DNA of 64,000 nt, from positions 1 through 64,000 of IMG/VR virus record IMGVR_UViG_3300009158_000046, one strand, 5' to 3'. Positions within the stretch are counted from its first letter, which is position 1. The number at the start of each line of letters is the position of its first letter. The notes beneath the pieces are model-generated. The model worked only from the letters and a program-made list of their open reading frames with translations. It did not search any database and had not been told where the DNA came from. The position numbers and the translations under genes were made by a program. Shown here piece after piece: positions 6,845 through 49,375 of the stretch. The DNA comes from a virus.

Positions 6845-6860
6845 GTTGAAAGCTTTCAAC
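6845..6860. promoter_or_regulatory. Palindrome copy 1, GTTGAAAGCTTTCAAC
   Basis: Perfect 16-bp palindrome upstream of the regulator. Confidence 0.85.
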
Positions 6861-6885
6861 GACTTGGGGGGAGCTGGGGTGGTAA

Positions 6886-6924
6886 TCCCAAAACTTCCGC
6901 GCTACCAGACTGCGCTATACCCCG
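6886..6924 (-). other. attP core region: 5' half of tRNA-Pro(TGG), not a complete tRNA
   Basis: CGGGGTATAGCGCAGTCTGGTAGCGCGGAAGTTTTGGG = acceptor 5' strand, D arm, anticodon 5' stem and TGG loop; pairing breaks after the loop; 60 nt downstream of the integrase. Confidence 0.85.
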
Positions 6925-6984
6925 TTTATACCCAAGCCGTTGAATTTGCAACCTATTCCCAAAGCCTTTGATTGAAGTCAGACT

Positions 6985-8046
6985 CTACAACTTACGCGAC
7001 TGGGGGAGAAGTGAGTGGGGACTGTGTTTCCCCAACAACTCCCTGAGAGTTTGCACGGATCCGGCGGCGTACAGCTCGTGGGCCTCGACCGTGGTGTGAC
7101 CCATGATCGACATCCGGTCCTCTCGGGACATCCCGAGCTGCCGGACCCACGACGCAAACGTATGACGCAGATCGTGAATTCTCGCTTTCGGCAACCCGGC
7201 TCTCTTCCGCAATACGGTCCAGCCTCGATAGATGGATACGTACCTTGTCCGTGTGCCGGGGTTGGTGAAGACGTACTCTGATAGTGGGTCACGGGCAATA
7301 CCTGCCAGTGTGTTCAGACTGTGTGTGGTGAGTGGGATCAGGCGGTCTCTTTTTGCCTTGTCCCGCTCCCGTGACAGCCTGATCGTACCCTTCTCCAAAT
7401 CGACCTCCGACCACATCAGGCCGAGGGCCTCTTCATGACGCATTCCGGTCTCCAAGATCAGCCGGATGTAGGCTGACCAGAAGCGACGGCCTTGCGCTGC
7501 GTCCAGCAGTCTCTGAACCTCATGAGGCTGTAGGAACCGGGCGTGATCCGAAGCTTTTCCTAGGCGCTTCTTGCTCACGAGCCGAACCGGGTTGTGGGTC
7601 GGGGCTCCCGGAAGTTCGTTCTCGACGGCAAATTCCAGCACGGCTGACAGGGCTGTCAGTTCATGGCGCACCTGGATGTCTGACGTCTGTGCCCTTCGGT
7701 CCTTCATATAGGTGCGGACCAGCTCCGGCGTGACAGCACTCAGCGGAATGTTGCCGAGGGTGTTCACGACGATCGCCATTTTGCGGGCGTACAATTTGGC
7801 CGTGCTGTCCTTGATGGTCAGCGACGGGTCTTGGAAGTAGTCATGGAGAGCCTGAATGAGGGTAAGGCTGTCGCGTCTGGTGGCTTCTCTTTCGAGTTCC
7901 TCTCGTCTGTGGTCTGCAACTTCGCGAGCGCGCTTGCGAAATGCTGGACTGGCGGGCACTCGTGTCGAGAAGCGATGAGTTTCTCCACCGACATCGAGTT
8001 CTGCATACCAGTACGGGCTTTCCGACCTTGTGAAGAGTTTGACCAT
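6985..8046 (-). CDS. int: Tyrosine integrase
   Basis: ETGMRHEEA (R), HDLRHTFAS (HxxR), IMGH, YA catalytic Tyr; N-terminal arm-binding-like domain. Confidence 0.96.
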   Translation of the reverse strand: MVKLFTRSESPYWYAELDVGGETHRFSTRVPASPAFRKRAREVADHRREELEREATRRDSLTLIQALHDYFQDPSLTIKDSTAKLYARKMAIVVNTLGNIPLSAVTPELVRTYMKDRRAQTSDIQVRHELTALSAVLEFAVENELPGAPTHNPVRLVSKKRLGKASDHARFLQPHEVQRLLDAAQGRRFWSAYIRLILETGMRHEEALGLMWSEVDLEKGTIRLSRERDKAKRDRLIPLTTHSLNTLAGIARDPLSEYVFTNPGTRTRYVSIYRGWTVLRKRAGLPKARIHDLRHTFASWVRQLGMSREDRMSIMGHTTVEAHELYAAGSVQTLRELLGKHSPHSLLPQSRKL

Positions 8047-8222: not shown

Positions 8223-8268
8223 GTTTCTCCCCCGTGAAATTCTGAACAGTCTCGTACAATATCGTTCG

Positions 8269-8496
8269 TTAATCTGATTGCGACTCATTATTGAGTCTAA
8301 TTAGTTCTGATACAGAATATGGGATTTGATATTTATTTATTAATAGCAAGTTAACAGCAGTCTCTAGTCTTTTGATTGATTTTCCAAGCTCATGAAATTC
8401 GTCGGTTCTAAACCCCGCCAATAATTCAATGGCGAGGTCCTCACTCACGTCAGATAGGGCTTCAAGCAGCGGTTTGATGTCGGTACTCTCTGTCAT
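8269..8496 (-). CDS. Hypothetical protein (AT-rich)
   Basis: 75-aa ORF with GGAG RBS. Confidence 0.55.
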   Translation of the reverse strand: MTESTDIKPLLEALSDVSEDLAIELLAGFRTDEFHELGKSIKRLETAVNLLLINKYQIPYSVSELIRLNNESQSD

Positions 8497-9187
8497 GCGA
8501 AACTCCCTGAAGGCGTTTGTCTACGACCCCTTTTTGAGTCCCATGAGCCGGAAAAGCTATAATAGCGTCTCTGGTCCTGGGTTTGGTGCAAAGCTGGCAA
8601 TCAAGACACGTCAATCTAGGCACGTAAGTCTCAGGACAAATTGCAACCGGACGACCTGATGGAGTTCTCAACTTGAGAGATCCACCGAGACGCTGTCGAT
8701 ATTCAGACAGACTCTCCATTTTTAGTCTCTTGTATCGAGACTCAATGACCACCACTGTTGGCAAGCCAGTAGCGGCTAACTCGTCGGCCTCCTCCAGAGA
8801 GTCGGCCGACAAATTCACGTTGAACCCCAACTGCGACATCTCCCGAAGGGTGTCGAAGTCGCGATCATGGCTAAAGCAGATAACCGGCCTACCAGCGTTG
8901 GCCTTGGCCAGTTCCAGCTTGTCATTTCGGTTTGGGGGCAAGTCTCCGGCCTGTCCGTAGCGCCAGACGGTGCCACGGCGGAGAAGACGGATCTGGCGGA
9001 GCAGGGCTTTGAAATCGATACCGATTGTCCCCAAGCTCTGCCAGAGAATCCACAGGGGACCCGTCAAGGCATAACAACCTGCATCATACAGAGAACACTT
9101 GAGTGAGCAAGTGTCCCTGGAGGCTGTGACAACGGGCATTGGACCCAGCTTTTTGTTGCGAGTCATAGCTGTGAAATAGAAGCGCAT
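8462..9187 (-). CDS. Cys-rich phage protein, possible Fe-S/radical-SAM-like fold
   Basis: TCSLKCSLYDAGCYA, R...AGDL, VNLSAD, CP..TCLDCQLC..FPAHG. Confidence 0.6.
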   Translation of the reverse strand: MRFYFTAMTRNKKLGPMPVVTASRDTCSLKCSLYDAGCYALTGPLWILWQSLGTIGIDFKALLRQIRLLRRGTVWRYGQAGDLPPNRNDKLELAKANAGRPVICFSHDRDFDTLREMSQLGFNVNLSADSLEEADELAATGLPTVVVIESRYKRLKMESLSEYRQRLGGSLKLRTPSGRPVAICPETYVPRLTCLDCQLCTKPRTRDAIIAFPAHGTQKGVVDKRLQGVSHDREYRHQTAA

Positions 9188-9205
9188 TCGCAGGACTCCA
9201 GAATC

Positions 9206-9234
9206 AAAAAGGCCCGCCGTGAGGCGAGCCTTTT
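9206..9234. terminator. Intrinsic terminator
   Basis: AAAAAGGCCCGCC-gtga-GGCGAGCCTTTT. Confidence 0.8.
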
Positions 9235-9290
9235 GGGATTGATGTCGGGGGATTTAGGGTTAGCTAATCAGTAAAACTGACTGCTAGGGG

Positions 9291-9545: not shown

Positions 9546-9745
9546 CAGCCGTCTTCCGTCGCGGCGCTCTCACGGCAGTCCGGGCAGGTTTCCCAATCCC
9601 GTACTCCATGCTCGCAAGGTGCCATGCTGCGAAGCCATGACTGGCGCTGTGCTTCCCACATGGCCTGCTGCTGTTCCGGCGTCATGGCGTCGTAACGAGC
9701 TTGCGCGTCAGCAAAGGCGCGCTGCAGTTCATCGCGGTCTTTCAT
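9545..9745 (-). CDS. Small zinc-ribbon protein
   Basis: CEHG...CPDC. Confidence 0.65.
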   Translation of the reverse strand: MKDRDELQRAFADAQARYDAMTPEQQQAMWEAQRQSWLRSMAPCEHGVRDWETCPDCRESAATEDG

Positions 9746-9899
9746 CTGTGGGATGCTCCTGTGCGTGTACGGCCTTGACGTGCTGCTTCACGGCGATGCG
9801 ATCAGCGAACACCTTGTCGCAGTGCGGACAGCGGTGGGTTCTGAGAACGCGCCACCGCCAGCCGCCGTCAAACCAGACGGTTCTGGGCTTGGTGGTCAT
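9729..9899 (-). CDS. 56-aa classical C2H2 zinc-finger protein (absent from ORF track)
   Basis: MTTKPRTVWFDGGWRWRVLRTHRCPHCDKVFADRIAVKQHVKAVHAQEHPTDERPR; ATGA overlap with upstream stop. Confidence 0.75.
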   Translation of the reverse strand: MTTKPRTVWFDGGWRWRVLRTHRCPHCDKVFADRIAVKQHVKAVHAQEHPTDERPR

Positions 9900-12014: not shown

Positions 12015-12851
12015 TCATTCGAAGTCGTCGTAGTCGTCCGACCCAACATCAACCGTGCCGGTGTCAATGACATCGGCATCGGGGCTGTCGTAAGTCGCCA
12101 CAGTATTCTGATGCTTGCGGACGAACTCATCAATGTACGACTTGGAAATCTCCTCCAGGACTTCGTACTTGCAGACCCGCATCTTTGAGCCGTCGTAGTC
12201 GGTCGGAACCGAAACGACGTCCTCGGGCCAGAAAGCGCAGAGAACGACACGGCGATCGTCCTGCCACAGCCCGAAATTCGGGATGTAGCGATAGGCCCCG
12301 AGATGGAGACCGTGGCTGCAGGTGTTGTCGGGATTGTCGTCCACGTCGCCGCGATCGATCTCGACAACCTTGCCGATCGAGTTGTCGAACTTGCCGCTAT
12401 AGACGTCGGTGAAGTCGTCCCGCACGACCTTGAGAGCGGTCATGCGCCCGTCTGCCAGCCACGGCAGGTCATTGACCTGAGCGAAGATGGGGAAACGGGT
12501 CCGAGCCGAATTGGTCGGATTGCGGTAGAGGCTCTCCAGCACGTTGAGCAGCGGCTGGAACGGCACATTCTCGGCCTGCAGCTTGAGCAGCTTCTCGGTG
12601 AAGTAGTTGTCGATCCGGTTGCCCTTGTAGAGCACCGAGTCGTAGGTCACCTCGAACCGGCCCTGGCTGACAGTCCGCAGAGCCTCGCCGCTGTCGCACC
12701 AGCCGATGAGCTGGTCGACGTCGGCGGTGGAGGTGAGGAGGCGCTCACGCGCCGCCTCGAAGTTGGAGTTGTCCCTGCCGATGTGGTGGGGCTGGCCCTT
12801 GGCGAAGAACGTGATGGAATGGTCAGCGATCGTGAACGGGATGTTCGTCAT
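12015..12851 (-). CDS. rIIB: RIIB-like protein
   Basis: DDNPDNTCSHGLH, VVSVPTDY..SKMRVCKYEVL; follows rIIA. Confidence 0.88.
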   Translation of the reverse strand: MTNIPFTIADHSITFFAKGQPHHIGRDNSNFEAARERLLTSTADVDQLIGWCDSGEALRTVSQGRFEVTYDSVLYKGNRIDNYFTEKLLKLQAENVPFQPLLNVLESLYRNPTNSARTRFPIFAQVNDLPWLADGRMTALKVVRDDFTDVYSGKFDNSIGKVVEIDRGDVDDNPDNTCSHGLHLGAYRYIPNFGLWQDDRRVVLCAFWPEDVVSVPTDYDGSKMRVCKYEVLEEISKSYIDEFVRKHQNTVATYDSPDADVIDTGTVDVGSDDYDDFE

Positions 12852-12876
12852 GGTAGGTCTCCTGTTTTGACGGAAG

Positions 12877-12892
12877 GATGAAAGGTTTCAAC
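12877..12892. promoter_or_regulatory. Palindrome copy 2 (one mismatch), GATGAAAGGTTTCAAC
   Basis: Overlaps the rIIA stop codon. Confidence 0.65.
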
Positions 12893-15005
12893 CGTGCTCA
12901 GCGGCACGAGCTTCAAGATCGAGATAGTAATCAAGATCCTGGACGTTCGAGTTATAGTACCCCAACTCCTGAACGAAGCGATGCAGGAGCTTGTACTTCT
13001 CCCTGAGGAGTTCGTACTCACCACCCAACTCCTGTGCGGGGCTGGGCGTCTCCACCAACTGACGAGCGTCGGCAGTGAATTTGTAGTAGTAGTTGTAGAG
13101 ATTGCGCTCGTCAGACTTGTCTTCGCCAGACTTGTGGAGCATCACCTTGGTGAGAAAGGCTGCGAAGTCGATAGGCTTCCTGCGAACCAACAGGTTAGCC
13201 TTCATCTTGAGGTTCTCGACACTACGGTCGAGAGCGTCGGCCTGCCGCTTACCCCTTGCGACAGCATCGAAGTCCATCTTGCTTTCGACGATCTGCTTGA
13301 GCCAGGGGCCAAACATCGTCCACTTTTGGAACTTCGGGGTCTCATCGAAAATGATGACGTTCGGGACTTCGTCGACGTACCCTGTCAGCTTGAGCAGCCG
13401 CAGGATCTCGCCGACGTGGCCCCGCATCATGTTGGTGTTGTAGGTGTGGTTAGGATCGGTGAGGTAGTTCCGGTTCCGCATCTGGGTGCGGCTGCCGACC
13501 TCCCGGTCGACGACGTAGATGCCGCCTTCCTTGAGAGAGATGGAGACGTCATTGATCTCGCCGTTGGCGAAGATCGACTTCTTCTTGACGGTCAGGCGAG
13601 AACGACCCTCACGGGCGATCTTGGGCAGCTTGACCTTGCCGAGATCGAACACCGCCGGGTCGGTGCGGGTCAGTCCAAAGCGACCGAGGACCGCGTCGAC
13701 GTGGTCGTTGTCCTTGCCGATGCAGCGCAGCCAAAGCACCCGGCCGGTCAGACGGGGCTTGAGGGCCGTGATACGTTCGAACGAGCGACTGGTTGTGGTC
13801 TGAATGATGACGCTGCGAATGCCAGCGCCATAGGAGCCGATGCTCCAGCTCCAATTTGCCTTGCCACGACCCTCTGAGAAGCGGTCGAAGACGGGGCTGT
13901 CCTGATCGCTGTTGAAGACGCAGGCGCTGACCTCGTCATGGTTGGACTTGAAGGTGCTGACGATCGGCGTCTTGCCCCTGTAGAGCACCTTGCTCTCCAG
14001 GTGCTTCGCAGCGCCACTCGGCATCGTGTTGGTTCGGTCGTGGAAGAGGACGCAGGCCTCGAAGAAGTTCTCGGCCGTGTCGATGTGGTCCTGCAGCTCG
14101 ACGACGTAGGCCAGCTCGAAGGCCTTGATCGTCTCCATCAGCGTCTGCTTGGTGGTGGCGTCGTAGCCAAGCTCCTCGTTCGACGTGGTGGGCGTGAGGC
14201 TGCCCAGAGGCACGTCGAACAGGATCGGCACGCGCCGCCATGGCCAGTCGGGCATGTCGAGAGCCGCCATGTCGACCGGGAACAGGATGCAGCCCATCCG
14301 AACCCTGGGACCGCTGAACGGCACAGTGTCCTTCTGGTACTGGACCCAGCCGTCGCCGGAAGCGGCGATGACCTCGCTACCGAAGTCGATCTCCGGATAA
14401 ATCTTCGGCCGGGGGCGAAAGCCCCAATAGGCAGACTGGGCTTCCCACCGGACCTTGTCGATGTCCTCGCGCCGGATCGGGAACGACACCTCCAAGCCGG
14501 TCGGCTCGTCGGTCGGGCTCTCGTCGATCAGGTCCCAGCCGGGCTTGCCGTCTGGCTGGATCGCCATGGTGTAGGTCCGCACCATGCCGTCGAAGAACGA
14601 GCGCACGGTGAAGGAGCCAGCGCCCTGGCCGAGCTGGGTGCCGTTGATCAGGTAGCCGTAGGGGCTCTTGGAGCCGAGGCCACGGTGACCCTGGCTGTCG
14701 GCGTCGTTGTCCTTGGTCGAGTTGCCGAACTCGCAGAAGACGTTGACGACGTCGTCGTGGCTGAGGCCGGGGCCGCAGTCACGGATCCGGAACACCGGCT
14801 TGAAGATGGTGGGCAGGAAGACCTCGAAGCTGGTCTTGGTGTCCCAGGCGTTGGACCCCAGCTCCTGAAGGAAGTATTTGATCTTGTTCTTCGCAATGCC
14901 GGACATGAGAGTGTAGTACATGACCGGAGTTGCACGAATGCCAGCCGTGCCGTGGCTGATCGTCTCAGACGTGATCTTGGTGTAGGTTCCGTAATTCGGT
15001 ATCAT
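12888..15005 (-). CDS. rIIA: RIIA-like protein with N-terminal GHKL ATPase domain
   Basis: ELGSNAWD, IRDCGPGLS, STKD, GLGSKSP, TGLEVSFPI. Confidence 0.88.
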   Translation of the reverse strand: MIPNYGTYTKITSETISHGTAGIRATPVMYYTLMSGIAKNKIKYFLQELGSNAWDTKTSFEVFLPTIFKPVFRIRDCGPGLSHDDVVNVFCEFGNSTKDNDADSQGHRGLGSKSPYGYLINGTQLGQGAGSFTVRSFFDGMVRTYTMAIQPDGKPGWDLIDESPTDEPTGLEVSFPIRREDIDKVRWEAQSAYWGFRPRPKIYPEIDFGSEVIAASGDGWVQYQKDTVPFSGPRVRMGCILFPVDMAALDMPDWPWRRVPILFDVPLGSLTPTTSNEELGYDATTKQTLMETIKAFELAYVVELQDHIDTAENFFEACVLFHDRTNTMPSGAAKHLESKVLYRGKTPIVSTFKSNHDEVSACVFNSDQDSPVFDRFSEGRGKANWSWSIGSYGAGIRSVIIQTTTSRSFERITALKPRLTGRVLWLRCIGKDNDHVDAVLGRFGLTRTDPAVFDLGKVKLPKIAREGRSRLTVKKKSIFANGEINDVSISLKEGGIYVVDREVGSRTQMRNRNYLTDPNHTYNTNMMRGHVGEILRLLKLTGYVDEVPNVIIFDETPKFQKWTMFGPWLKQIVESKMDFDAVARGKRQADALDRSVENLKMKANLLVRRKPIDFAAFLTKVMLHKSGEDKSDERNLYNYYYKFTADARQLVETPSPAQELGGEYELLREKYKLLHRFVQELGYYNSNVQDLDYYLDLEARAAEHG

Positions 15006-15022
15006 TTGTTGCTCCAAAAATG

Positions 15023-15074: not shown

Positions 15075-15090
15075 GTTGAAAGCTTTCAAC
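15075..15090. promoter_or_regulatory. Palindrome copy 3, GTTGAAAGCTTTCAAC
   Basis: Abuts the stop codon at 15091. Confidence 0.85.
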
Positions 15091-15435
15091 CTACTCGGAG
15101 TTGCTGATCGCGTTCGAAGCCTCCTGGAAGATCACGAAGTGCTTGGAGCGGACGTAGTGGACGAACCGCGTTTCCCAGTCCTTGGAGGCAGTCCTACGCA
15201 ACTCTCCACGCTTGGCCTGCACGAGCTGCAGTGCGAGCTTCTTCATCCGCATCGCCATGCGGGCCTTGCGGAGCCAGACAGCGTCGTCCTGACGTTCGGG
15301 GTCGATGAGGTGGCCCTCGATGACGCCGAGTGCCTGCGTGAGCACGAGCTGGGCGTTGTGGCAGTCGTCGAGAGTCTTGAGATCGTCGATGACCCAATCG
15401 GGGCCGTCGATCTCGATGACAGGTACGGGCTTCAT
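15091..15435 (-). CDS. Hypothetical helical protein
   Basis: 114-aa coupled ORF. Confidence 0.7.
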   Translation of the reverse strand: MKPVPVIEIDGPDWVIDDLKTLDDCHNAQLVLTQALGVIEGHLIDPERQDDAVWLRKARMAMRMKKLALQLVQAKRGELRRTASKDWETRFVHYVRSKHFVIFQEASNAISNSE

Positions 15436-18949: not shown

Positions 18950-21237
18950 GATCGGGCAGCTCCGGGATGAGGTTGCGGGTGACGTCAAGCCAGACGCGGT
19001 CCTTGCACAGGACGCTCTGGAACACGGGACCATCGAAGGTCCCCTCCCCGATCGTGCATTTGCGCTTGGTCGGGTAGCGCTCGAAGAAGGCCTTGGCGGC
19101 TTGTCGCGGGGTCTTTCCCCGGACGAAGGGCACGCCAGAACGGGTGGCGATGAATTCCTTCACGACAGTCTCTCCTGCATGGCCTCGATGACCCTGCGCT
19201 GCAGGGCGACGATGTCGGCCAGGGTCTGGGGTTCTTCGATGTCGGCGAGTTCGAGCTGCCGGGCCAACGAGACCGGCAGACGGCACTTTTGTTGAAAGCT
19301 TTCAACAGGTTGGCGAGGTGGGGGCGGAGCCGGAGCCGGGATTTCGACCGGCAGTCCAGGGGTCTGGAGACCGGGGAGACCGAACTCCGCCCGCAGCGTG
19401 TCGACGGCTGACTGGAGCTGGTCGACGATCTCCTGGGCCTGCTCGGGCGTGTACTCGTAGGAGTACCGGTTGGTGAGGTGGCCTAGAATGCGAAACGCCT
19501 CCAAAGTGGTTTGGAGGCGTTTCGAGGATAGGCGCTGAAAGTTCTGGGCTTTAGGGCTGTCGTTCAATGGGCACCCCATAAGCGATAGGGACAAGCCGAT
19601 AGTCGTGGTAGCGCAGGTTCTTGACGATCTCGGCCCACACCTTGTGGGCGAGTTCACGGTTGCTCTCGATCACGCCGGAGAAATGCCAGGGTGACGACGG
19701 AGAAGCCTTGAGTTCGACCCTGTAGTTGTAGGTCATGCTGCCAGCTCCGTGGTGAGTTCGAATGTCCGTATGCAGAAAGCAGCCTCGGACATCCAGCGTG
19801 GCTTCTGGGCTTCGACAAACTCGGCGACCGAGGAGTTGGGCTCGACACTCCAAGTGTCCACGAGTGCCCGGACCTCGTCGAAGGTGAGGTGGAACAAGCG
19901 CAGATGGGACCTCAAATTCTCGACGTGCAAGGACTGGAACTGGGGGTAGAACCCGGCCCAATACTTGGCGTTCTCGACAGCGTGCATCGGTACGCCATCG
20001 AAGCTGGAGAGGTGGATCTGGGCCAGCGGTTCAAGGTCAGGCCACTGGGCCACCAGTAGGTGGTGGAGGGTTCCGGCCTGTTCGAGGCGTCCATCCTTGA
20101 ACAGCCGTCCAACCAAGGAGAAGTAGGGAGGCTTGCCCGTGATCTTGGCGTCAGCCACGAGCTTGAGGGTGCCGTCCGGGGACTGGCAGGATCGGATCAC
20201 AGACACTGTAATGCTCGCGATTTGAGGGTTTCGGGGTCCCTGATGCCGTCGAGAAACCAGAGACGGAGGAAAATGGGGACCACGTCGTAGTCCCAGACGT
20301 GGTCGGAGAAGGCGGGCGAGAGCGGATCGACGACCATGGAGAACTTGGTCACGAGGTCGCGGGTCTCTGGCGGGCCGTGCTGCTCAATCAGCGGGCCGTA
20401 GCTCGCGTACTCGATCTCGTGCATGTGCAGCCACGCCGCCTGGGCGGTGTTGCAGATGTCCAGCCAGCGCTGTTCAGCCATAGACCACCTCCCCGAACAC
20501 CCAACCCTGGAAGAACACGTCGGCGTCCTCGGCGTCGTAGTAGTCCATGGTGAAGTCGGGGCGCTGGGCGAGGAGGAGGTTCAGGCCACGCTGGATGTGC
20601 TCGAAGGGCACGCTGGTGGGTTCGTCATCGTCGGGGGTGACGACCAGGATCGTGCTCGCAGGGAGCGTGTAGGTCTCCGGGTTGGAGTAATCGACGGAGG
20701 CCTGATACTTGATCCGGATCTTTTGGCACCAGTAGGACGATCCGCCCTCGACTGCCGTTGTCATGAGTTCGGCAATGTCCTGGGGGCTGAAGGTCCGGGG
20801 GGTGGGGACAATCCAAGTCATTGGGAGATCCTTTCTCAAGAGACGCGGAACCGGCCGGAGGCCGCGAGGCGGATGCTCTGGATTTCCGAGTTGTGGCGCG
20901 AGTAGTTGGCCTGCAAGACACGCACGTCATTGCGGAGATCCGTGACCTCCTTGGTGAGGTTGAGCAGGAGCTGCTGGATCTCGGAGGGGAGCGGAGCCGG
21001 AGGCTGTGCCGGTTTCAGGTTCCCGAACTCGGCCTTTCGCAGATAGGCGACGGTGTTGCTCGACACCGGCACGTTCATGAAGTCAGCCACGAACTTGGCG
21101 ACGTTCTCGTCGTCCCAGCCGGGGTTGAACTCGATGAACTCTGTGTCGGGAACCTTGGACGTGACCTCGGTCAGCTTGTTGTAGATCGAGAGCCGGGTCT
21201 TGAAGTCAGCGTTGGTACGCTTGGAAGTCTGTGCCAT
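18942..21237 (-). other. Run of small coupled hypothetical genes (18942-19163, 19160-19567, 19551-19736, 19733-20206, 20197-20481, 20474-20821, 20836-21237)
   Basis: Consecutive overlapping minus-strand ORFs with RBS-like motifs. Confidence 0.7.
19291..19306. promoter_or_regulatory. Palindrome copy 4, GTTGAAAGCTTTCAAC (intragenic)
   Basis: Perfect palindrome inside the 19160-19567 CDS. Confidence 0.75.
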
Positions 21238-21238: not shown

Positions 21239-21255
21239 GTTGAAACCCTTTCAGT
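21239..21255. promoter_or_regulatory. Palindrome copy 5 (3-nt spacer, imperfect end)
   Basis: GTTGAAACCCTTTCAGT; contains the upstream stop and the RBS of the next gene. Confidence 0.7.
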
Positions 21256-21436
21256 CGTCACCAAAGTGATTGGTCGCGAAATCTTCGACGATCCGGATAG
21301 CCTCATCGTGTTCGGAAAAGGCTTCTGGCTCTTCGTCTCGATCAGCCATCGCTGAACGAGCGAGATTGACGACGATTTGCAGTGCATCAGCCAGATCGAG
21401 CCGCACACCGTCGTCTTTGTTTTCATTAACGTTCAT
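21251..21436 (-). CDS. Small acidic hypothetical protein bracketed by two palindrome copies
   Basis: 61 aa, D/E-rich. Confidence 0.65.
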   Translation of the reverse strand: MNVNENKDDGVRLDLADALQIVVNLARSAMADRDEEPEAFSEHDEAIRIVEDFATNHFGDD

Positions 21437-21437
21437 G

Positions 21438-21454
21438 GTTGAAACCCTTTCAAC
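21438..21454. promoter_or_regulatory. Palindrome copy 6, GTTGAAACCCTTTCAAC
   Basis: Fills the gap between stop 21457 and ATG 21436. Confidence 0.85.
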
Positions 21455-21456: not shown

Positions 21457-22029
21457 TTAGTAGTCCTGGAATGCTTTCAGAAGCTGGGTGATGATCTTGT
21501 CACCCAGACCAGCGCGGAGCTTGAGAGCTGTCGCCATACATGCGTGGTACATGGCGAGTGCTTTGCGGGAGTCCGGGTCGTACCCGAAGTCGGATGCCCA
21601 GTCCTCGAAGGACGAGTGGTTGATGACACTGGCGTCGAGGAGGATGCAGTAGATGACGTCGAGGTCGTTCGGCTTGATTGGCCGGGATCGGTCCAGGGGG
21701 TAGAGGTGCCAGTCCTCGGGATTGGCGGCACCGGAGAGCCACTGCGGTTTCGAGGGAAACCCGGTCTCACACTCCGCCTTGATCCGGCCACGGAGGATGC
21801 GACGGTCCCAGGGTGTCTTCTGGGGCAAGGGCTTGAGCAGTCTGGAAACCGGGCACTGCCCGGATCTTGCGCTGTAGTCCACGTCCACGATGGGGTGCTT
21901 GTCCCTGTGCAGGGTCACGCGCCAGTTGAGGCAGGGGTCCTTGTCCGCGTTGCGAGACTTGGAGTGCGGGACGAAAGCCGAGCTGAGCCACAGGCCCAGC
22001 TCGACCTGCAAAACGGCTGGGTCTGCCAT
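21457..22029 (-). CDS. Conserved phage hypothetical protein
   Basis: DVIYCILLDA..SFEDWASDFGYDPDSRKA..Y.AC motif. Confidence 0.75.
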   Translation of the reverse strand: MADPAVLQVELGLWLSSAFVPHSKSRNADKDPCLNWRVTLHRDKHPIVDVDYSARSGQCPVSRLLKPLPQKTPWDRRILRGRIKAECETGFPSKPQWLSGAANPEDWHLYPLDRSRPIKPNDLDVIYCILLDASVINHSSFEDWASDFGYDPDSRKALAMYHACMATALKLRAGLGDKIITQLLKAFQDY

Positions 22030-22400
22030 CAGACCAACTCGACGATCCGCTTGGTCTCGACGCGGGCGATCAGGACCACCCTTGAGACACGGACGAGTTC
22101 GACGTGCTTCTCTGAGGCCTTCTGCTCGGCGGTTTCGAGTGCGTCCGGGTATTCGTCGTCGTCGAAGTGGACGTGGTGCGAACTCCGGATGCCACCGAAT
22201 GTCTCGTCCCATGTCACCATCCAGCCGTGCTTGGTGTCGGAGGTGTTTCGCTTCACCAAAGCGGCAAAGTTCGATGCCAGTTGGTCGTACAAATCCTTCG
22301 CTTCCTTGAGCGGAAGGTCCGTATGAGCGCGGATCGCCTTGATCGTCTCGATAGGTCCGTTCTTCGACGCACGGATCAGTTCGTTGATTAAGCCAAGCAT
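22029..22400 (-). CDS. Protein with ribosomal L7/L12 C-terminal-like domain
   Basis: IETIKAIRAHTDLPLKEAKDLYD resembles the L7/L12 IK.VR..TGLGLKEAKDLV signature. Confidence 0.7.
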   Translation of the reverse strand: MLGLINELIRASKNGPIETIKAIRAHTDLPLKEAKDLYDQLASNFAALVKRNTSDTKHGWMVTWDETFGGIRSSHHVHFDDDEYPDALETAEQKASEKHVELVRVSRVVLIARVETKRIVELV

Positions 22401-22989: not shown

Positions 22990-23005
22990 GTTGAAAGCTT
23001 TCAAA
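22990..23005. promoter_or_regulatory. Palindrome copy 7, GTTGAAAGCTTTCAAA
   Basis: Directly abuts ATG 22989. Confidence 0.8.
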
Positions 23006-23859: not shown

Positions 23860-24030
23860 GCTCAAATTACTGATAGAAAACGGTTAGGAAATAAAAATGG
23901 ATTTGGGCTTATGATAATACAGCTTTATATCTAGGAGTATTACTTATATATCCTATATATTATTATTTTTCTTTAGTGGGTGATATAAAAAAATTTACTC
24001 CCCCTAAAAACTATCAGGAAACAAAATAGC
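23860..24030. other. Very AT-rich non-coding island, candidate replication origin
   Basis: e.g. TATTACTTATATATCCTATATATTATTATTTTT in a GC-rich genome; no ORF. Confidence 0.5.
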
Positions 24031-24419
24031 AGCGAAGGCGCTTTCTGCGCCTCCGTTGCCAATCACCCGGTCAAAACGCGCTGAAATTGCTGCGTTTTTT
24101 CTTATACTCCCAGGGGGGTTCCAAGATTTGGGAGGATGCGGGGACCCCCCGGCCGGCCAGAATTTTGACCGCCAGTCCATGTCTGCTTGGATCTCTGTAG
24201 GAGATACTGCCGTACCTCCCTACGAGTCTGCCGCTGGCACTCACGGCGCTCTTCCCGCATCTTGTCCTTCCACGGATTGCACATGTTCGACGTCCTTGTC
24301 GTCACCCCTCCCCGGCCACCACCACGGCAACCTCCATGGGAGTATTTGAAACAGCCCAACCCCCGACTCCTTCATAGGAACGAGAAAATAGGACTATTTC
24401 CCTAGATAGCAGGCGCAAC

Positions 24420-24471
24420 TGCTACCTCCTCGCCCACGCACTAGACTGCGCTCGTGGGCGAGGAGGTAGCA
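24420..24471. repeat. Perfect 19-bp inverted repeat
   Basis: TGCTACCTCCTCGCCCACG-14 nt-CGTGGGCGAGGAGGTAGCA. Confidence 0.9.
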
Positions 24472-24513
24472 ACGAACTACGTTGTGGGCGTATATCCGAA
24501 GCTATACTTCGAT

Positions 24514-24591
24514 GTTGAAAGGTTTCAACGCTTCCCTATTGGTTGAAAACTTTCAACCAAGACGAGGCCGGTTGAAAGTTTTCAACCGGCC
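24514..24591. promoter_or_regulatory. Palindrome copies 8-10 in tandem
   Basis: GTTGAAAGGTTTCAAC 24514, GTTGAAAACTTTCAAC 24542, GTTGAAAGTTTTCAAC 24571. Confidence 0.88.
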
Positions 24592-24601: not shown

Positions 24602-25084
24602 TCAGCACCCACGCTCGCGCCGGGGACGGGGGCGGATGAAACGGAACTTGGGTGGCGTGGAGATGGTTGGCTCGCGTAGCGGAACCGACTTCGGCACCTC
24701 GGGCGGGAGGTTGCGACAGAAGTCGTTGCGAAGCGCGACCTTGGTGTCGTGCTCGATCTGGCGCTTCTGTTCGGCCATCATGGCCTGATAGTAGCGAGCG
24801 ACCTCGGCATCCTCCTCCGCCTCCTCGATGTCGGCGAGACTCCGCAACACCCTGGCCCCGGCTTTGACCGTGGGCTTGGGCTTGGGCTCGGACTCGGGCT
24901 CGGGGGTGGGCTTGGGGCTGACGATGACACCATGCTCGGTCACATGCACACGGGGCGCACGGGGCGAGCGGATGGGTGCGAGCGTGGGCTCGGGTGTGGC
25001 GCGGGTGATGGTCAGCCCGGAGCGCTCTGCGGCCATCTGTGCGGCCGAAAGCTCCCGGTAATTTCTCTTGCCAACTAAGAACAT
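24602..25084 (-). CDS. Pro-rich hypothetical early protein
   Basis: MFLVGKR..., AAGGG RBS, PKPTPEPESEPKPKP. Confidence 0.6.
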   Translation of the reverse strand: MFLVGKRNYRELSAAQMAAERSGLTITRATPEPTLAPIRSPRAPRVHVTEHGVIVSPKPTPEPESEPKPKPTVKAGARVLRSLADIEEAEEDAEVARYYQAMMAEQKRQIEHDTKVALRNDFCRNLPPEVPKSVPLREPTISTPPKFRFIRPRPRRERGC

Positions 25085-25100: not shown

Positions 25101-25117
25101 GTTGAAAGGCTTTCAAC
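25101..25117. promoter_or_regulatory. Palindrome copy 11, GTTGAAAGGCTTTCAAC
   Basis: 16 nt upstream of ATG 25084. Confidence 0.85.
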
Positions 25118-25596: not shown

Positions 25597-26553
25597 TCAG
25601 GCGGCTTTCCGGTTCTGGACCTTCGCCACAGCCTTGCGCCTCGCCTTCGCCTTGGCGACGTCGCGCACGGTTTCCGCTTCCGCGAATTCCGCCATGCTCG
25701 GCCCGTCCGCTTGCGCCGCCTTGACCGCTTCCGCTTCCGTGCGGATCCGCTCCGCTTCCGCCGTCAGTTCGCGGATTCGGTTCGCCAATGCGTCAATCGC
25801 GGTCTGGCAATCGGCGACGGTTTCCAGCTTGGCAATCGCGGTCAAGGCATTGCCCAATTGCGAAATAGGCGCGGACTTGACCGGAGCGGAAGCCTCCGGA
25901 GCGGGGGCGATTGCATCGGCAAGGCTAGTTTCCGCCTTGGCCAAGGCTTCCGCCGGAGCGGGGACGGGAGCGGGGACGGGAGCGGGGACGTCGTCCGCGT
26001 CGTCCGCGTCGTCCGCGTCGTCCGCGTCGTCTTCCCGCGCTTCCGCTTCCGCCTTGGCGCGCAATTCGGCCGCGTCCTTCGCGTTCTGCTTTTCCGCCTT
26101 ATCGGCCGCTTTGATCTGTGCCGCAGTGCGATAAAGCGGCGAACCGGCGTGACGTTGCAGGGACACGGCCGATGTCATGCCATGGTCCGCAAGCCATGCC
26201 TTCAGCGTGGTTGCGGCGGCGTCCGGTTCGGCATGCGAGATGACGGACGCCACGACGTCCGGGTGACGGGCTTCCATCCCGTCCGCGATCTGGCGCGCCG
26301 CCTTGCGATAGCGGCTCGCGCTCGCCTTATCAATCGTCGGAGCGGCTTCGAGAACCTTGTTTAGTGCGTCGTCGACTTCAGCGTTAACCCGGTTCCGCTT
26401 GTGGGCAATGGCCACAAGCGCCATGGCCAGCGACAAGCCGAACGCTGCGGATTCGTATGCAAGTGCGCTAGCTTTGGCGAAGCCGCATGCTTTGGCGAAG
26501 GACAGGGCCGGAGCGGCCGGAGCGGCGGAAGCGGTGTTTGACTTGCGAGGCAT
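25597..26553 (-). CDS. Ala-rich 318-aa protein with low-complexity linker
   Basis: Long ORF, AAGG RBS inside palindrome; (DDA)n and (VPAP)n repeats encoded at 25955-26031. Confidence 0.75.
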   Translation of the reverse strand: MPRKSNTASAAPAAPALSFAKACGFAKASALAYESAAFGLSLAMALVAIAHKRNRVNAEVDDALNKVLEAAPTIDKASASRYRKAARQIADGMEARHPDVVASVISHAEPDAAATTLKAWLADHGMTSAVSLQRHAGSPLYRTAAQIKAADKAEKQNAKDAAELRAKAEAEAREDDADDADDADDADDVPAPVPAPVPAPAEALAKAETSLADAIAPAPEASAPVKSAPISQLGNALTAIAKLETVADCQTAIDALANRIRELTAEAERIRTEAEAVKAAQADGPSMAEFAEAETVRDVAKAKARRKAVAKVQNRKAA

Positions 26554-26554: not shown

Positions 26555-26571
26555 GTTGAAAGCCTTTCAAC
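26555..26571. promoter_or_regulatory. Palindrome copy 12, GTTGAAAGCCTTTCAAC
   Basis: 1 nt upstream of ATG 26553; contains its RBS. Confidence 0.85.
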
Positions 26572-39572: not shown

Positions 39573-40467
39573 GCCGGGTCCACCCGTCCGAGGGTCAAGC
39601 ACCCTCCCCGACATTGTCCGTGTCAAATTCCGCATCGGTGATACGCGAGCCGGTGGGCGGCAGTCGGACGTCCAGGGCGGGCTGCTGAATGAGCCTCAGG
39701 TCCAGGCGTTTCAGAAAACCATGCTGGACGTCATCAAGGTGCGCGCCTCTGGCCGCATCCAGGCGGCGTTTCGCAGATCGCTTGACAAGATCGAAGACGA
39801 CATCCGTCAAGATCTTGATGACTTTGCCCAGATCGCCCTGAGGTTCGCGACCAGTCAGGAAAGTCCCGAGCGTGGAACCCTGAAAATCGCCCCTCCCCCG
39901 GTTGCGCGCACATCGGGAACGGCCACTTTCAAGTCGTTCATTCGAACATCGAATGCTGACTTGCGGGCTGCGGCTTTGGACTGGCCATCCCTGACCAAGC
40001 GCTGGATGGATCAGAAGAAGAACAGAACCTTCTTCGTCGGCAAGGGTGCGGCTCTAGGCCGAAGAGGAGGTCTCAAGGGCTTTCTTGGTCGAGAGCTGGG
40101 AAACGCCTACCAAGAGCTTTTTGATCCTCGCATCGTGCTTCGAACAGAGAACGAGAGAACTGACAAGGGCACCGTGCGGGAACGGGTTGCTCGCATCACC
40201 GTGTCATTTTCGCAGAAGAACCCGGCTCTCGCGAGAGAGATCCAGGGTCTTGGCAAGACCGGCGTGGATGACTCCGGCATTCTGGAGTCGCTGTTCGCCG
40301 GTCGCGATGACGTCATCCGCAAGCTGGAAAACCGAGGCAAGGGACGTCGCCCAAAGCGTCCATGGGTCGGGGCCTTTGCCCGCTTTTGGCTGGTGAACCG
40401 CATGCCGGAAGTGGCAAACAGCTCTCTCAGCCAAAACATCGCCCGCCTCAAGAGAAGCGAGTTCTGA
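39556..40467 (+). CDS. Basic neck/tail-completion protein
   Basis: Arg/Lys-rich, WPSLT, PKRPW; position. Confidence 0.55.
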   Translation: MAKSSRPGPPVRGSSTLPDIVRVKFRIGDTRAGGRQSDVQGGLLNEPQVQAFQKTMLDVIKVRASGRIQAAFRRSLDKIEDDIRQDLDDFAQIALRFATSQESPERGTLKIAPPPVARTSGTATFKSFIRTSNADLRAAALDWPSLTKRWMDQKKNRTFFVGKGAALGRRGGLKGFLGRELGNAYQELFDPRIVLRTENERTDKGTVRERVARITVSFSQKNPALAREIQGLGKTGVDDSGILESLFAGRDDVIRKLENRGKGRRPKRPWVGAFARFWLVNRMPEVANSSLSQNIARLKRSEF

Positions 40468-40470
40468 CCC

Positions 40471-40905
40471 ATGTTCAACGTTTCGCGGATCGCGGTCATC
40501 AAGTTGATCAACGACACTATGCAGAGTCTGACGCCACCCACCGGCATCGGACTTCAGTACATTGACTGGGATGATGCTTCGGACATCCAGGATGTGCCGC
40601 CCACTGACCTGATCGGTCTGAACGGCTTCGCCATGACGGACCTGGACAGGGTCCATGACGTGATGTTTGGCGTCTCGGTGGCCAGCTACAACGACCCGAA
40701 CCTGTTTCGCGTCAGTCGCTACGCTGACCTCTTTTACCGGACTTTGAAGACCGGCTCTTACTTCTCTGTTTGGAATGCTGACACGGCGCAGAAGATCGGC
40801 AACATCACGCTCTATGCCGGAACTTCTGTCTCTCCGATCACGCGAGCTGAAAATCGCGCGATGCAGAACATTGTTGCTAAGGGACGTCTGGTTCTGACGA
40901 CTTGA
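40471..40905 (+). CDS. Probable tail terminator
   Basis: 144 aa before tail tube gene. Confidence 0.55.
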   Translation: MFNVSRIAVIKLINDTMQSLTPPTGIGLQYIDWDDASDIQDVPPTDLIGLNGFAMTDLDRVHDVMFGVSVASYNDPNLFRVSRYADLFYRTLKTGSYFSVWNADTAQKIGNITLYAGTSVSPITRAENRAMQNIVAKGRLVLTT

Positions 40906-48461: not shown

Positions 48462-48871
48462 TGCCGAATTTTGATTTTCCCTACCACAAGGTCACGGATG
48501 AATACCCGGAGAGCAGCATCATTCTGCGCTTCGGTCGTGGCTACCAGTTTGCATCGAAGCCGCGTGGGCCTGACCAGCTCATTTTCCATCTCGAATTCCC
48601 GGTGATGTACTGGTACTTCAACGGCACAACAATAGATCGCACTGTCAAACCTCAATTCAACTTTGCATTCTTGCAGGACTTTTATGAGTCAGTGAGGATG
48701 TACGACACGTTCACCTACACCCACCCATCCCGTGGGGTGCAGACCGTGCGGTTCCAGAAACCACTTCCGCCGGTCAAAGGGATCAGCAACGCGGTGATCT
48801 ACGAGCCAACGATCTCCCGCACCCGGCACGCCATTGACGCCTTCAACATCGATCTGATCCAGCAGCCATGA
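48461..48871 (+). CDS. Minor tail protein (lambda M / distal-tail-like)
   Basis: FGRGYQ, DFYE....TFTYTHP; position after TMP. Confidence 0.75.
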   Translation: MPNFDFPYHKVTDEYPESSIILRFGRGYQFASKPRGPDQLIFHLEFPVMYWYFNGTTIDRTVKPQFNFAFLQDFYESVRMYDTFTYTHPSRGVQTVRFQKPLPPVKGISNAVIYEPTISRTRHAIDAFNIDLIQQP

Positions 48872-49359
48872 CAGCTCCCAACGCACAGCTTGTTGAAGCC
48901 CAGAAGCTCACCTCAGACGCTCTTGTCGACCTGTTCGAGGTGTTCCTGGTGGGCGCTCCGAATGGGACCTACGTGCGGTTCACGAACGGCAAGAGCGTGA
49001 CGTGGCAGAGCAAGACCTACGAGGCGCTGGGTTGCAAGTTCTCGACCGTCAGCCGCACTGCGGAGCCAGAGCGCAGCCGCCCGACACTCACCGTGATCAA
49101 CCCCTTGGGCATCTTCAACAGCTATGCCTTCAAGGGGTATTTCGAGCAGGCGACGGTGATCCGAAAGCGCGTGCTGTTGCAGCACATCACCAGCAACACA
49201 GCTTTGAGTGACGACACCTATTTCTACATTTCCAAAGTCAAGGAAATGATCGCCGACCAGTCGGTCTCGTTCGAGCTTAGAGCCCTCAGCGACGGTCCGG
49301 ACCTGATGATCCCGGCTCGTGTTTTCATTCCGCCAGACTTTCCGTTTGTCACTCTCTAG
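48868..49359 (+). CDS. Minor tail protein (lambda L-like)
   Basis: VDLFE, VTWQ...YEA, RPTLTV.N, VIRKRV, FEL....IPAR. Confidence 0.8.
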   Translation: MTAPNAQLVEAQKLTSDALVDLFEVFLVGAPNGTYVRFTNGKSVTWQSKTYEALGCKFSTVSRTAEPERSRPTLTVINPLGIFNSYAFKGYFEQATVIRKRVLLQHITSNTALSDDTYFYISKVKEMIADQSVSFELRALSDGPDLMIPARVFIPPDFPFVTL

Positions 49360-49375
49360 GTTGAAAGCTTTCAAC
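49360..49375. promoter_or_regulatory. Palindrome copy 13, GTTGAAAGCTTTCAAC
   Basis: Fills the gap between TAG 49359 and ATG 49377. Confidence 0.85.

Follow-up and report, generated by a model that had tools for sequence, protein, structure and literature searches.

The question raised by this locus is what reads a short palindrome, GTTGAAA-N2/3-TTTCAAC, that recurs at the gene junctions of an uncultured temperate phage, and whether it is read as double-stranded DNA or as a hairpin. We analysed a window of 64,000 nt, meaning the whole stretch of DNA under study, from a record of 72,977 bp. Caulobacter phage Seuss and Achromobacter phage JWF are relatives of this temperate phage, whose own host is probably a member of the Beijerinckiaceae. 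Two stretches compared by megablast with the phage collection gave no close relative, nor did a primase search of viral and metagenome contigs. The first-pass annotation had opposed repressor sites to hairpins acting on RNA or ssDNA and had preferred the hairpin. This alternative was well framed; the preference was not supported by most of our tests. The reading we favour, to which we give a little less than an even chance, is that the palindrome is recognised by one sequence-specific protein, a symmetric (dimeric) and most likely phage-encoded binder that would read it as duplex DNA.

The palindrome itself is far from a chance feature. The exact motif with a spacer of two or three bases occurred ten times in the window and not at all in 100 dinucleotide shuffles. 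Allowing up to two mismatches, nine copies of the N2 form and four of the N3 form were found, and these 13 are exactly the copies listed in the first-pass annotation. The shuffle mean was 0.13 per form (about 0.26 in total), with a largest shuffle count of 2. Three of the copies are degenerate, with one mismatch at 12877 and 22990 and two at 21239. A fourteenth, exact copy lies at 72337 of the record, within the family-A DNA polymerase gene. Isolated half-sites were not enriched (6 and 3 outside the palindromes, 3.6 and 4.1 expected). Twelve of the 14 copies are situated in gaps of the early block or in one tail-gene gap, outside clear coding sequence. A palindromic operator network would show such a set of many dyad sites, far above chance and mostly non-coding. 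The exact 16-mer was present elsewhere as a single occurrence in each of 17 other IMG/VR contigs. The copies in the window and two genes discussed below are the following:

6294..6758, minus strand: two-HTH regulator, 154 aa from ATG 6758, Seuss gp077 homologue with an XRE-type C-terminal HTH
6845..6860, no strand assigned: 16-bp exact copy, centre GC, in the integrase/regulator gap
12877..12892, no strand assigned: 16-bp copy with one mismatch, arm TGA forming the rIIA stop
15075..15090, no strand assigned: 16-bp exact copy adjoining the TAG stop of ORF 15091-15435
19291..19306, no strand assigned: 16-bp exact copy within the mechanically called ORF 19160-19657, whose gene boundaries are uncertain
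21239..21255, no strand assigned: 17-bp copy with two mismatches, GAAAGGG on the coding strand
21438..21454, no strand assigned: 17-bp exact copy, GAAAGGG on the coding strand
22990..23005, no strand assigned: 16-bp copy with one mismatch, adjoining ATG 22989 of a 65-aa ORF
24514..24586, no strand assigned: three tandem exact copies (24514, 24542, 24571) spaced by 28-29 bp
25101..25117, no strand assigned: 17-bp exact copy, coding-strand centre GCC
25597..26553, minus strand: first early gene, 318 aa; its position alone makes it a candidate reader
26555..26571, no strand assigned: 17-bp exact copy, GAAAGGC on the coding strand
49360..49375, no strand assigned: 16-bp exact copy in the late operon

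The placement of these copies relative to codons was close to what had been described from the first reading. Seven of the 13 (12877, 15075, 21239, 21438, 22990, 26555 and 49360) lie within 2 nt of a stop or start codon. The left-arm TGA serves as the stop codon of rIIA at 12877 and of the 61-aa ORF 21251-21436 at 21239. Between copy 12877 and the rIIB ATG (12851) there are 25 nt containing AGGAG, and copy 15075 precedes the rIIA start (15017) by 57 nt. Copy 21239 ends 1 nt before ATG 21237, copy 21438 fills the interval between the TAA stop of 21457-22212 and ATG 21436 (gap 1 nt), and copy 26555 stands 1 nt before ATG 26553, where the first early gene to follow the primase starts. As proposed, these three 17-bp copies contain a Shine-Dalgarno sequence, coding-strand GAAAGG(G/C), located 8 nt before the ATG. 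Five of the 13 copies are 0-1 nt from an ATG; the others are 16-86 nt away or belong to non-coding clusters. The orientation of the centre tracked Shine-Dalgarno use only.

Copy 6845 lies where 226 nt separate the integrase stop (6985) from the regulator ATG, 86 nt upstream of this ATG and 25 nt from an attP-like tRNA-Pro fragment. Copy 19291 has a 7-bp GC-rich hairpin next to it on its downstream side. The tandem copies are in non-coding DNA downstream of ORF 24602-25084, and beyond them follow a hairpin with an 18-bp stem and an AT-rich stretch; copy 25101 is 16 nt upstream of ATG 25084, with AAGGGA in between. The copy in the late tail operon is indeed solitary: it stands between a lambda L-like minor tail gene (48868-49359), which ends in TAG, and a K-like gene starting at ATG 49377, in the arrangement TAG-motif-g-ATG. 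The flanks had been thought to extend the pairing at several copies. This holds for 24542 (TTG..CAA) and for 24571 (GGCCG..CGGCC), where the stem reaches 12 bp; the one-base extensions were at chance level.

Every relative that was examined in detail had an over-represented palindrome of its own in the same early block: TTTACC-N2/3-GGTAAA in Seuss (9 copies), GTTCGT-N-ACGAAC in JWF (12), TTACT-N5-AGTAA in Lumi (21) and GGGGTAAC/GTTACCCC in KB12-38 (10). Further loci contained 13 (L105), 10 (L051), 10 (L098) and 11 copies (L067, a dyad with 5-nt arms). In a survey of IMG/VR, 18 of 80 loci had a palindrome with 6-nt arms in at least four copies, above all ten shuffles; two of these were TATATA low complexity, and in the other 16, 95 of 98 copies were downstream of the primase. 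A local palindrome preceded the first early gene in all seven phages viewed, and relatives had clusters of two to three copies located 1.5-2.5 kb downstream of the primase. The main text of the Lumi and TCUP2199 papers mentions no palindromes, inverted repeats, promoters or hairpins. One orthologous gene is followed, after its stop, by GGTTCGTAACGAACC in JWF and by GGTTCAACTTGAACC in its close relative G006, a symmetric change of both arms. Phage-specific palindromes in relatives, together with this concerted change, strongly imply a sequence-specific reader.

Whether such a reader would contact DNA or RNA was the main point to settle, and most evidence favours recognition as double-stranded DNA. 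Invariant arms around a variable centre are the usual pattern of dimeric DNA binders, as in HTH operators. As isolated RNAs, the motif hairpins had minimum free energies of only −1.4 to −5.0 kcal/mol at five of seven sites; site 15075 reached −9.9 kcal/mol, and the −4.6 kcal/mol obtained for site 26555 belonged to a fold other than the motif hairpin. At five of the seven sites at least 70 of 200 shuffles folded equally well or better. Pairing was kept in none of the three degenerate copies of the window. Among the 16 single-mismatch copies of 18 families, one was G-U compatible on the sense strand, five were A-C and ten other mismatches. A search for compensatory arm pairs among the mismatched copies gave none, a search for flank covariation no general signal and an Rfam search of the sites no matching family. 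Neither conserved pairing nor stability above background, the marks of a structured cis-RNA, was observed. In Lumi, the A/T-rich 5-bp arms around a non-palindromic N5 centre kept their spacing among the 21 copies listed; these arms are one helical turn apart and allow no stable hairpin.

The spacer had been the argument for a hairpin. A variation of ±1 does recur, in eight of 18 tabulated families (G000, Seuss, L051, L053, L075, L089, L098 and L105); most other tests pointed the other way. Such a variation would be unusual for a rigid dimer, and a hairpin would tolerate it as a change in loop size. In the remaining relatives considered for spacing (JWF, Lumi, KB12, L049, L060 and L087) the half-sites were at fixed distance. 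An element acting on RNA is possible, if on balance unlikely: the transcribed palindrome would form a small hairpin directly 5' of or around the ribosome-binding site, and a phage-specific RNA-binding protein or endoribonuclease would recognise it. Such a hairpin could work as an operator of translation, enforce the coupling of translation between genes, or be a site between cistrons for processing or stabilisation. The five window copies that practically touch an ATG, three of them with the Shine-Dalgarno in the centre, are consistent with this, as are Seuss and some Lumi copies with a coding-strand Shine-Dalgarno in the centre (one reversed Seuss copy has its own downstream Shine-Dalgarno). 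Within families the distance to the start codon clustered at about 37 nt in KB12, 13-15 nt in JWF and 13-15 or 2-3 nt in Lumi; a roadblock does not need such clustering, whereas an RNA leader or a module for translation initiation would fit it. Moreover, 61 of 139 sites were within 30 nt after the stop of a long ORF, against 17.7% of random positions. A weak lead came from the first early protein, which had an ESM Atlas feature hit to a RegA-type translational repressor cluster (score 0.87, below the 0.9 bar). Against an RNA element stand the weakness of the hairpins, the near-neutral energy roughly estimated for Lumi stems of five A/U pairs around N5, and the results reported above, with wobble pairing kept in one of 16 mismatched copies and with neither compensatory changes nor general flank covariation nor Rfam matches. 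In addition, stems are invariant and loops variable here, the reverse of most known protein-hairpin recognition (MS2 coat, lambda N-boxB).

A role as a box for a host regulator, as a replication iteron or as an intrinsic terminator is very unlikely. The 16-bp form does match the CRP/FNR-type consensus TTGA-N6-TCAA; the 17-bp form, however, breaks this spacing, with N7 between TTGA and TCAA in four copies. Four Beijerinckiaceae genomes of 3.4-4.3 Mb hold zero or one copy of the 12-nt core, against 12 in the 73-kb phage, and related phages of related hosts have unrelated palindromes. Origin iterons read by the primase-helicase would account for the tandem copies 2.4 kb downstream of the primase, with an AT-rich stretch about 500 bp further, and for the similar clusters in relatives. 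They would leave the dispersed copies at gene starts unexplained, and the primase C-terminus is almost unchanged between phages with different palindromes. As for intrinsic terminators, the extended copy 24571 and two KB12 copies passed a terminator-like scan, whereas the stems are A/T-rich and 12 of the 13 window copies lack a GC-rich stem followed by a T run. Promoter scans beside the sites revealed no promoter-like sequence. Hairpin promoters of the N4 type are used by a phage-encoded or virion RNA polymerase and place the transcription start downstream of the hairpin. The copies adjoining an ATG leave no space for such a start, no RNA polymerase family was found among 78 ORFs (PHROGs or Pfam), and the protein of 2943 aa belongs to the lambda J-like tail fibres.

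The sites also coincide with gains and losses of genes. In variant X6, known from DNA contigs of other runs, 21248-21454 is missing, that is, the 61-aa ORF and one motif copy, and a single perfect 16-bp copy is left at the position of copy 21239. Variants X3 and X6 both lack the 65-aa ORF that starts at copy 22990. None of the 40 substitutions listed (of 923) fell inside a motif copy. Almost no genes of the early block are common with relatives, yet palindrome sites persist there. We nevertheless give very little weight to a primary role as recombination boundary, in which repeats would promote exchange, insertion or loss of cassettes and be kept alike by gene conversion with no dedicated reader. 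Consistent with such exchange, gene 14 of mycobacteriophage Corndog has a 17-bp direct repeat at both flanks, of which its relatives have a single copy (PMC4351075). However, exchange is expected as a side effect at any dispersed repeat, and recombination leaves unexplained the dyad symmetry, the confinement to the early block, the orientation of the centres, which is compatible with a Shine-Dalgarno, and the symmetric change between close relatives. A conserved recombinase is absent as well; the integrase found here was not seen by BLASTP in Seuss, JWF or Lumi.

With the palindrome taken as an operator, a coherent mechanism may be proposed. From the primase to the integrase/regulator module, the short intervals that separate the accessory early genes are where the sites are concentrated, and a bound protein would block or modulate transcription through this block. 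We infer that such an operator or roadblock network would serve the shut-off of early genes and possibly, in this temperate member, immunity. It is because the gaps are so short that copies would come to adjoin start codons and that the variable centre of the 17-bp form would double as a Shine-Dalgarno sequence. The repeated identical sequence would, as a by-product, offer a break point for the gain and loss of cassettes.

The search for the reader of these putative operators among the two-HTH regulator, the primase C-terminus and the first early protein did not find it. The regulator, proposed on first reading, exists as a gene, and its variation does not follow that of the palindrome: the presumed recognition helices are nearly identical in JWF, L051 and L054 despite different palindromes. 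The idea that its presence tracks the palindromes was dropped, as no regulator was detected in KB12-38 or in L067 (11 copies), both of which bear palindromes. For the Arc/RHH proteins named as further candidates, no Arc/RHH family was obtained at E ≤ 0.5. The C2H2 ORF (9729-9899) scored 25.4 bits, just below the Pfam threshold of 27. The primase does not covary with the palindrome, and its C-terminus is much the same in phages whose palindromes differ. In the JWF/L051/L054/L098 subgroup, which has four different dyads, the primase is 65-95% identical over most of its length, only the last approximately 30 alignment columns varying more.

In position, the first early gene product corresponds to a fast-evolving all-alpha protein encoded behind the clustered palindromes of relatives. 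Homology between the JWF-subgroup family and the window's own protein is weak (hhalign probability 6.6%), a word-index search found no homologue of the window's gene, and only 21 representatives of the subgroup family were present among 1.84 billion proteins. Foldseek with the whole family model (pLDDT 82.8) gave nothing at E ≤ 0.001, and the best VIA match (Z = 7.2) was a generic helical hairpin, so no recognisable DNA-binding fold emerged from either search. None of 54 early ORFs from three relatives matched a DNA-binding Pfam family at E ≤ 0.01. Pfam searches for ParB, RHH and RNA polymerase were negative. BLASTP clusters of sense-strand ORFs from 58 genomes or loci contained no conserved early family except primase shadows. 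A 164-aa coiled-coil protein beside the primase has ORF matches in 31 other genomes or loci and gave no family or DNA-binding signal.

It is quite unlikely, if attractive, that this fold-orphan first early protein itself reads the dyad as a private "address label" with which the Seuss/JWF-like siphovirus clade would tag its early cassettes. Were this so, one label would combine regulation, part of the ribosome-binding site and a recombination joint, and the gene of the reader would itself stand behind a label cluster. The tagged cassettes would be of a host-takeover or anti-defence-like kind and the label rapidly re-coded in each phage, so that cassettes could be swapped under the control of the resident phage, a functional analogue of integron cassettes.

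Should the sites prove to be operators, they would delineate the early regulon of this phage and of a wider group including cultured phages of Caulobacter, Achromobacter and Xylophilus. JWF, L051, L054 and L098 are close relatives in which the dyad has been re-coded in nature, and this series is suited to finding the DNA-binding protein and to studying how the specificities of site and reader evolve in parallel. The association of cassette indels with the sites is relevant to the persistence of early-region mosaicism in phages.

Comparison with known systems places the palindrome in familiar company. The CIRs of the phiC31 repressor and the KorA and KorB operators of RK2 are cases where one regulator serves a dozen or more palindromic sites on a mobile genome, many of them intergenic among early or backbone genes. 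There, the reader is known and binding was demonstrated, whereas the present system is known from its sites alone; sites and proteins are unrelated in sequence, so that the palindrome cannot be assigned to either. Cluster A stoperators are bound by a monomeric immunity repressor (L5 gp71). They too repeat a single short site many times, in the narrow intergenic gaps among the lytic genes of temperate phages, and are proposed to stop transcription through the block. Two papers describe them as 13 bp long, asymmetric and oriented with transcription (PMC4351075, PMC3203893). The site found here is, in contrast, a perfect 7+7 dyad, and apparently lytic relatives have sites as well. No immunity repressor was identified here, the only clear XRE-type HTH protein being the regulator that does not covary with the palindrome.

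The SAS and ESAS of Cluster K share several features with the present sites: they are confined to the non-structural half, 3-7 bp from start codons, with the Shine-Dalgarno core inside (PMC3203893). As there, the stop codon of the upstream gene may fall within the repeat. The SAS is a 13-bp, non-palindromic sequence in a single orientation; in the inverted repeats of the ESAS the spacer varies and the consensus differs by subcluster, and the authors see little support for RNA hairpins (PMC3203893). The element described here differs from SAS in its perfect dyad and in an association with starts that concerns some copies only, five of 13 being within 1 nt of an ATG.

There is also a close likeness to Cluster O mycobacteriophages such as Corndog and their 17-bp palindromic repeats, 5'-TGTTCGGNNNCCGAACA (PMC4351075). 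In that paper's account of the repeats, 7-bp invariant inverted arms enclose a variable 3-bp centre whose orientation has no meaning, each genome holds over 30 copies, with a higher density in the non-structural arm, and many copies are intergenic and some intragenic. The lineage and host are unrelated (Actinobacteria there, Proteobacteria here), the spacing is fixed at N3 there and is N2 or N3 here, and the relatives we examined in detail each have a different palindrome, unlike Cluster O. According to the same account, the sites of Cluster O have no close link with starts of translation (PMC4351075), whereas five of 13 copies adjoin an ATG here. The principle is not new, as palindromes scattered over phage genomes, with a repressor function or with none known, have been published before, and the palindrome of this phage belongs to a known kind of feature, that of the Cluster O palindromes and the stoperators.

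The palindrome GTTGAAA-N2/3-TTTCAAC forms a real set and is part of a clade-wide pattern, which we did not find mentioned in the Lumi and TCUP2199 papers. Its exact form occurred ten times in the window, against no match in any of 100 shuffles. With up to two mismatches, nine copies with a 2-base centre and four with a 3-base centre were recovered where 0.13 was expected per form, and these are exactly the 13 coordinates that a first-pass annotation had listed. A further exact copy lies at 72337, within the family-A DNA polymerase gene in the remainder of the viral record, which is 72,977 bp long with a terminal overlap of 123 bp and of which the window covers bases 1-64000. Single half-sites were not enriched, indicating that the unit is the dyad.

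Features of the record
29889 to 360, continuing over the record's end to about 63125, leftward: block opening with a PrimPol/D5-type primase-helicase
30009 to about 62600, rightward: terminase, portal, capsid, tape measure and a lambda J-like fibre of 2943 aa
6294-6758: two-HTH regulator, ATG at 6758 with GGGGG 7 nt upstream
6886-6924, minus strand: 5' portion (39 bases) of a tRNA-Pro(UGG) gene, running through the anticodon loop
6985-8046: integrase, adjoined by the tRNA-Pro fragment
24514-24586: three exact tandem copies, 28-29 bp apart, in non-coding DNA
25597-26553, minus strand: first early gene, 318 aa

The primase-helicase is followed by about 20 kb of small genes, mostly without family but including rIIA/rIIB, the integrase and the regulator, and beyond these by helicase, exonuclease, polymerase and nucleotide-metabolism genes. 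Gaps of this early stretch, between 26571 and 6845, account for eleven of the 14 copies; the others are within a mechanically called ORF (19291), between two tail genes and in the polymerase gene. The earlier remark that most copies touch a stop or start codon held for seven, which have one within 2 nt on the coding strand. Both rIIA and a 61-aa ORF end at the TGA within the arm, and ATG follows 0-1 nt after the end of five copies. Three 17-bp copies indeed contain a Shine-Dalgarno (SD) sequence, as had been claimed, their centre reading GAAAGG(G/C) on the coding strand, 8 nt before ATG.

Downstream of the tandem copies, window 23880-24480, within about 950 nt of non-coding DNA, holds a perfect hairpin with an 18-bp stem (about 24425-24476) and a strongly AT-rich stretch (about 23880-24010). 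This region could be a replication origin, or it could mark the physical ends of the genome, by analogy with relatives in which terminal repeats occur some 2 kb beyond the primase.

The nearest named phages share 31-43% protein identity in primase and terminase: Caulobacter phage Seuss, Achromobacter phages JWF and 2-1, Xylophilus phage Lumi, EAb13-type Acinetobacter phages and, for the terminase only, Pseudoalteromonas phage KB12-38 (KB12). The tRNA-Pro fragment matched exactly in 11 genome records, ten from Methylocella, Methylocapsa, Beijerinckia or other Beijerinckiaceae/Methylobacteriaceae and one labelled Spirochaetota; ARAGORN found no whole tRNA. Judged by sequence, the fragment is probably the attP core, which would make the phage temperate, with a host probably among the Beijerinckiaceae. 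The core 12-mer of the palindrome occurred 0-1 times in each of four candidate-host genomes (3.4-4.3 Mb), so a host regulon motif is unlikely. The rIIA- and rIIB-like genes (12015-15017) sit in a probably temperate siphovirus, and one palindrome copy incorporates the stop codon of rIIA; in Seuss, too, a dyad lies just upstream of rIIA. Nucleotide-metabolism genes (window 4500-5087 and 63125-63715; related locus L043, 6091-6606 and 7181-8110) encode a PF04447 dATP/dGTP pyrophosphohydrolase, a dNMP phosphatase or dATPase-like HD protein, a dCMP deaminase and a weak ThyX-like protein, a set that may point to modified DNA or a changed nucleotide pool. DUF7227, RadC-like JAB and LPD29 domains appeared amid family-less early ORFs (window 8462-9187; locus L105, 15701-16189, 19163-19870 and 20265-20663). 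Proteins of these types are frequent in anti-defence or leading regions, which suggests a host-takeover or anti-defence role for the cassettes that carry the palindrome.

A de novo count of perfect palindromes, with 5-7-base arms and 0-6 bases in the centre, covered 13 genomes and gave shuffle maxima of 2-6. GTTGAAA..TTTCAAC ranked first in this genome, and a different dyad ranked first in each of four named relatives. The relatives, where the first-pass annotation had proposed to look, carry dyads of their own whose sequences differ between phages; EAb13 had no palindrome exceeding shuffle level.

Top-ranking dyads of named relatives, copies, and distance to the next start
Seuss: TTTACC-N2/3-GGTAAA; 9 copies, terminal-repeat duplicates included; 1-6 nt, GAGG in the centre on the coding strand
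JWF: GTTCGT-N-ACGAAC; 12 copies; 13-15 nt, SD in between
Lumi: TTACT-N5-AGTAA; 21 copies; 13-15 nt, or 2-3 nt with AGGAG in the centre
KB12-38: GGGGTAAC/GTTACCCC; 10 copies; about 37 nt, conserved AT-rich leader

A primase profile search yielded 80 IMG/VR loci, and a locus was flagged when a 6-base-arm palindrome had at least four copies and exceeded each of 10 shuffles. Eighteen loci were flagged, two of them for TATATA runs; many of the others were short or only distantly related. By manual listing, about 30 loci matched the primase over its full length and had 4.3 kb or more downstream of it; 13 of them were flagged. Several further loci had three copies or a 5-base-arm dyad, such as L067 with ATCCCTGAGAGGGA 11 times, which the 6-base-arm scan missed, so that the share of relatives with a dyad family is underestimated. 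In the L067 record, the eleven copies, read as CCATCCCTGAGAGGGAC with an SD-like centre, lie at 59287-80071 and 734. Leaving aside the TATATA runs, the 16 flagged loci have 98 copies, of which 95 were downstream of the primase, on the early side (manual count), and clusters of two to three copies lay 1.5-2.5 kb downstream of it in L051, L089, L049, L098, Lumi and KB12. Over 18 families, 61 of 139 sites lay within 30 nt after a long-ORF stop, against 17.7% of random positions in the same regions. The distance to the next start was clustered inside each family, and the sole reversed Seuss copy has its own AGGAG downstream.

JWF, L051, L054/L066 and L098 are close relatives, their primases 65-95% identical across most of their length, with the following dyads.

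Dyads in the JWF subgroup
JWF: GGTTCGT-N-ACGAACC
L051: AAGTGCGAC-G-GTCGCACTT
L054/L066: GGTTCAA-N-TTGAACC
L098: GTGCAG-N2/3-CTGCAC

Immediately behind the stop codon of one orthologous gene, the sequence is GGTTCGTAACGAACC in JWF and GGTTCAACTTGAACC in L054, both arms being changed. Within a genome, all copies changed jointly and symmetrically, which implies either a sequence-specific reader or homogenisation of the copies. Upstream of the first early gene of the L054 record (40330-40480), two copies have unlike halves, GGTGCAA(C)GTTGAACC, one arm being the phage's own GGTTCAA and the other resembling the GTGC-type arm of L051 and L098; they may represent an intermediate step of dyad re-coding or a hetero-site within it.

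The dyad is probably read as duplex DNA, and an RNA hairpin, preferred in the first-pass annotation because of the variable spacer, is the less probable reading. The spacer variation did recur, by ±1 in 8 of 18 tabulated families, and the start-codon distance fixed inside families and the SD embedded in some copies also suit an RNA role. The folds themselves, however, were weak. At six of seven isolated sites the motif hairpin was the minimum free energy structure, with -1.4 to -5.0 kcal/mol in five and -9.9 at 15075, whereas at 26555 the minimum (-4.6 kcal/mol) was a different fold; at five of the seven, 70-125 of 200 shuffles folded at least equally well. All three degenerate copies in the window have broken base pairs, and among 16 one-mismatch copies in the 18 families, one was G-U compatible on the sense strand, five gave A-C and ten other mismatches. 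Flank-extended pairing, also put forward earlier, exceeded its permutation null just slightly, owing to a few copies mostly in clustered regions. Lumi has five A/T-rich arm pairs around a mostly non-palindromic N5 with fixed spacing, and no Rfam family matches the palindrome.

As for the protein that would read duplex DNA, the two-HTH regulator proposed earlier is present and has homologues in Seuss (gp077), JWF, Lumi, L051, L054, L066, L044, L053 and, weakly, L060. Its C-terminal half matches HTH repressors of the XRE type, among them CylR2, C.AhdI and SinR. Yet the stretch aligned to what we take, from family knowledge, to be the recognition helix reads WTTHKL in JWF, WTVHKV in L054 and WTTHKI in L051, and the N-terminal HTH is likewise similar in L054 and L051 despite different dyads. 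No such regulator was detected in KB12, L067, L056 and EAb13, two of which bear palindromes. The primase C-terminus hardly varied in the JWF subgroup. The first sizeable gene after the primase had the local dyad ahead of it in all seven phages viewed, and its product was 30% identical between records G005 and G006 (L054), where core genes reach 55-80%. This first early gene is a candidate by position only. Its family in the JWF subgroup comprises 21 representatives among 1.84 billion proteins; in the model, an all-alpha N-terminal domain predicted with confidence is followed by a disordered linker and a helical hairpin, and no solved fold matches. Similarity to the window's 318-aa protein was weak (hhalign probability 6.6%; common motifs KRY..K...IA and AWL...G.TS). 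The linker of the latter contains DDA repeats encoded by four copies of a 9-bp tandem repeat of GACGCGGAC type (25989-26025), near which variant strain X3 has a 21-base insertion (26074).

Palindrome copies are joints of gene gain and loss, as indels in X3 and X6, variant strains in DNA contigs of other sequencing runs, coincide with them. X6 has swapped 21248-21454, the 61-aa ORF and one copy, for 36 other letters completing one perfect 16-bp copy, and shows several small indels across the third tandem copy. Both variants skip 22782/22771-22981, and with it the 65-aa ORF beginning at the 22990 copy. We regard this role as following from the repeats, not as the reason they exist.

The conserved inverted repeats of the phiC31 repressor and the KorA/KorB sites of RK2 are further close systems. 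Cluster A stoperators, which are asymmetric, are among the closest things described. To these can be added the start-associated sequences of Cluster K (PMC3203893) and the 17-bp palindromes of 7-N3-7 form in Cluster O mycobacteriophages (PMC4351075).
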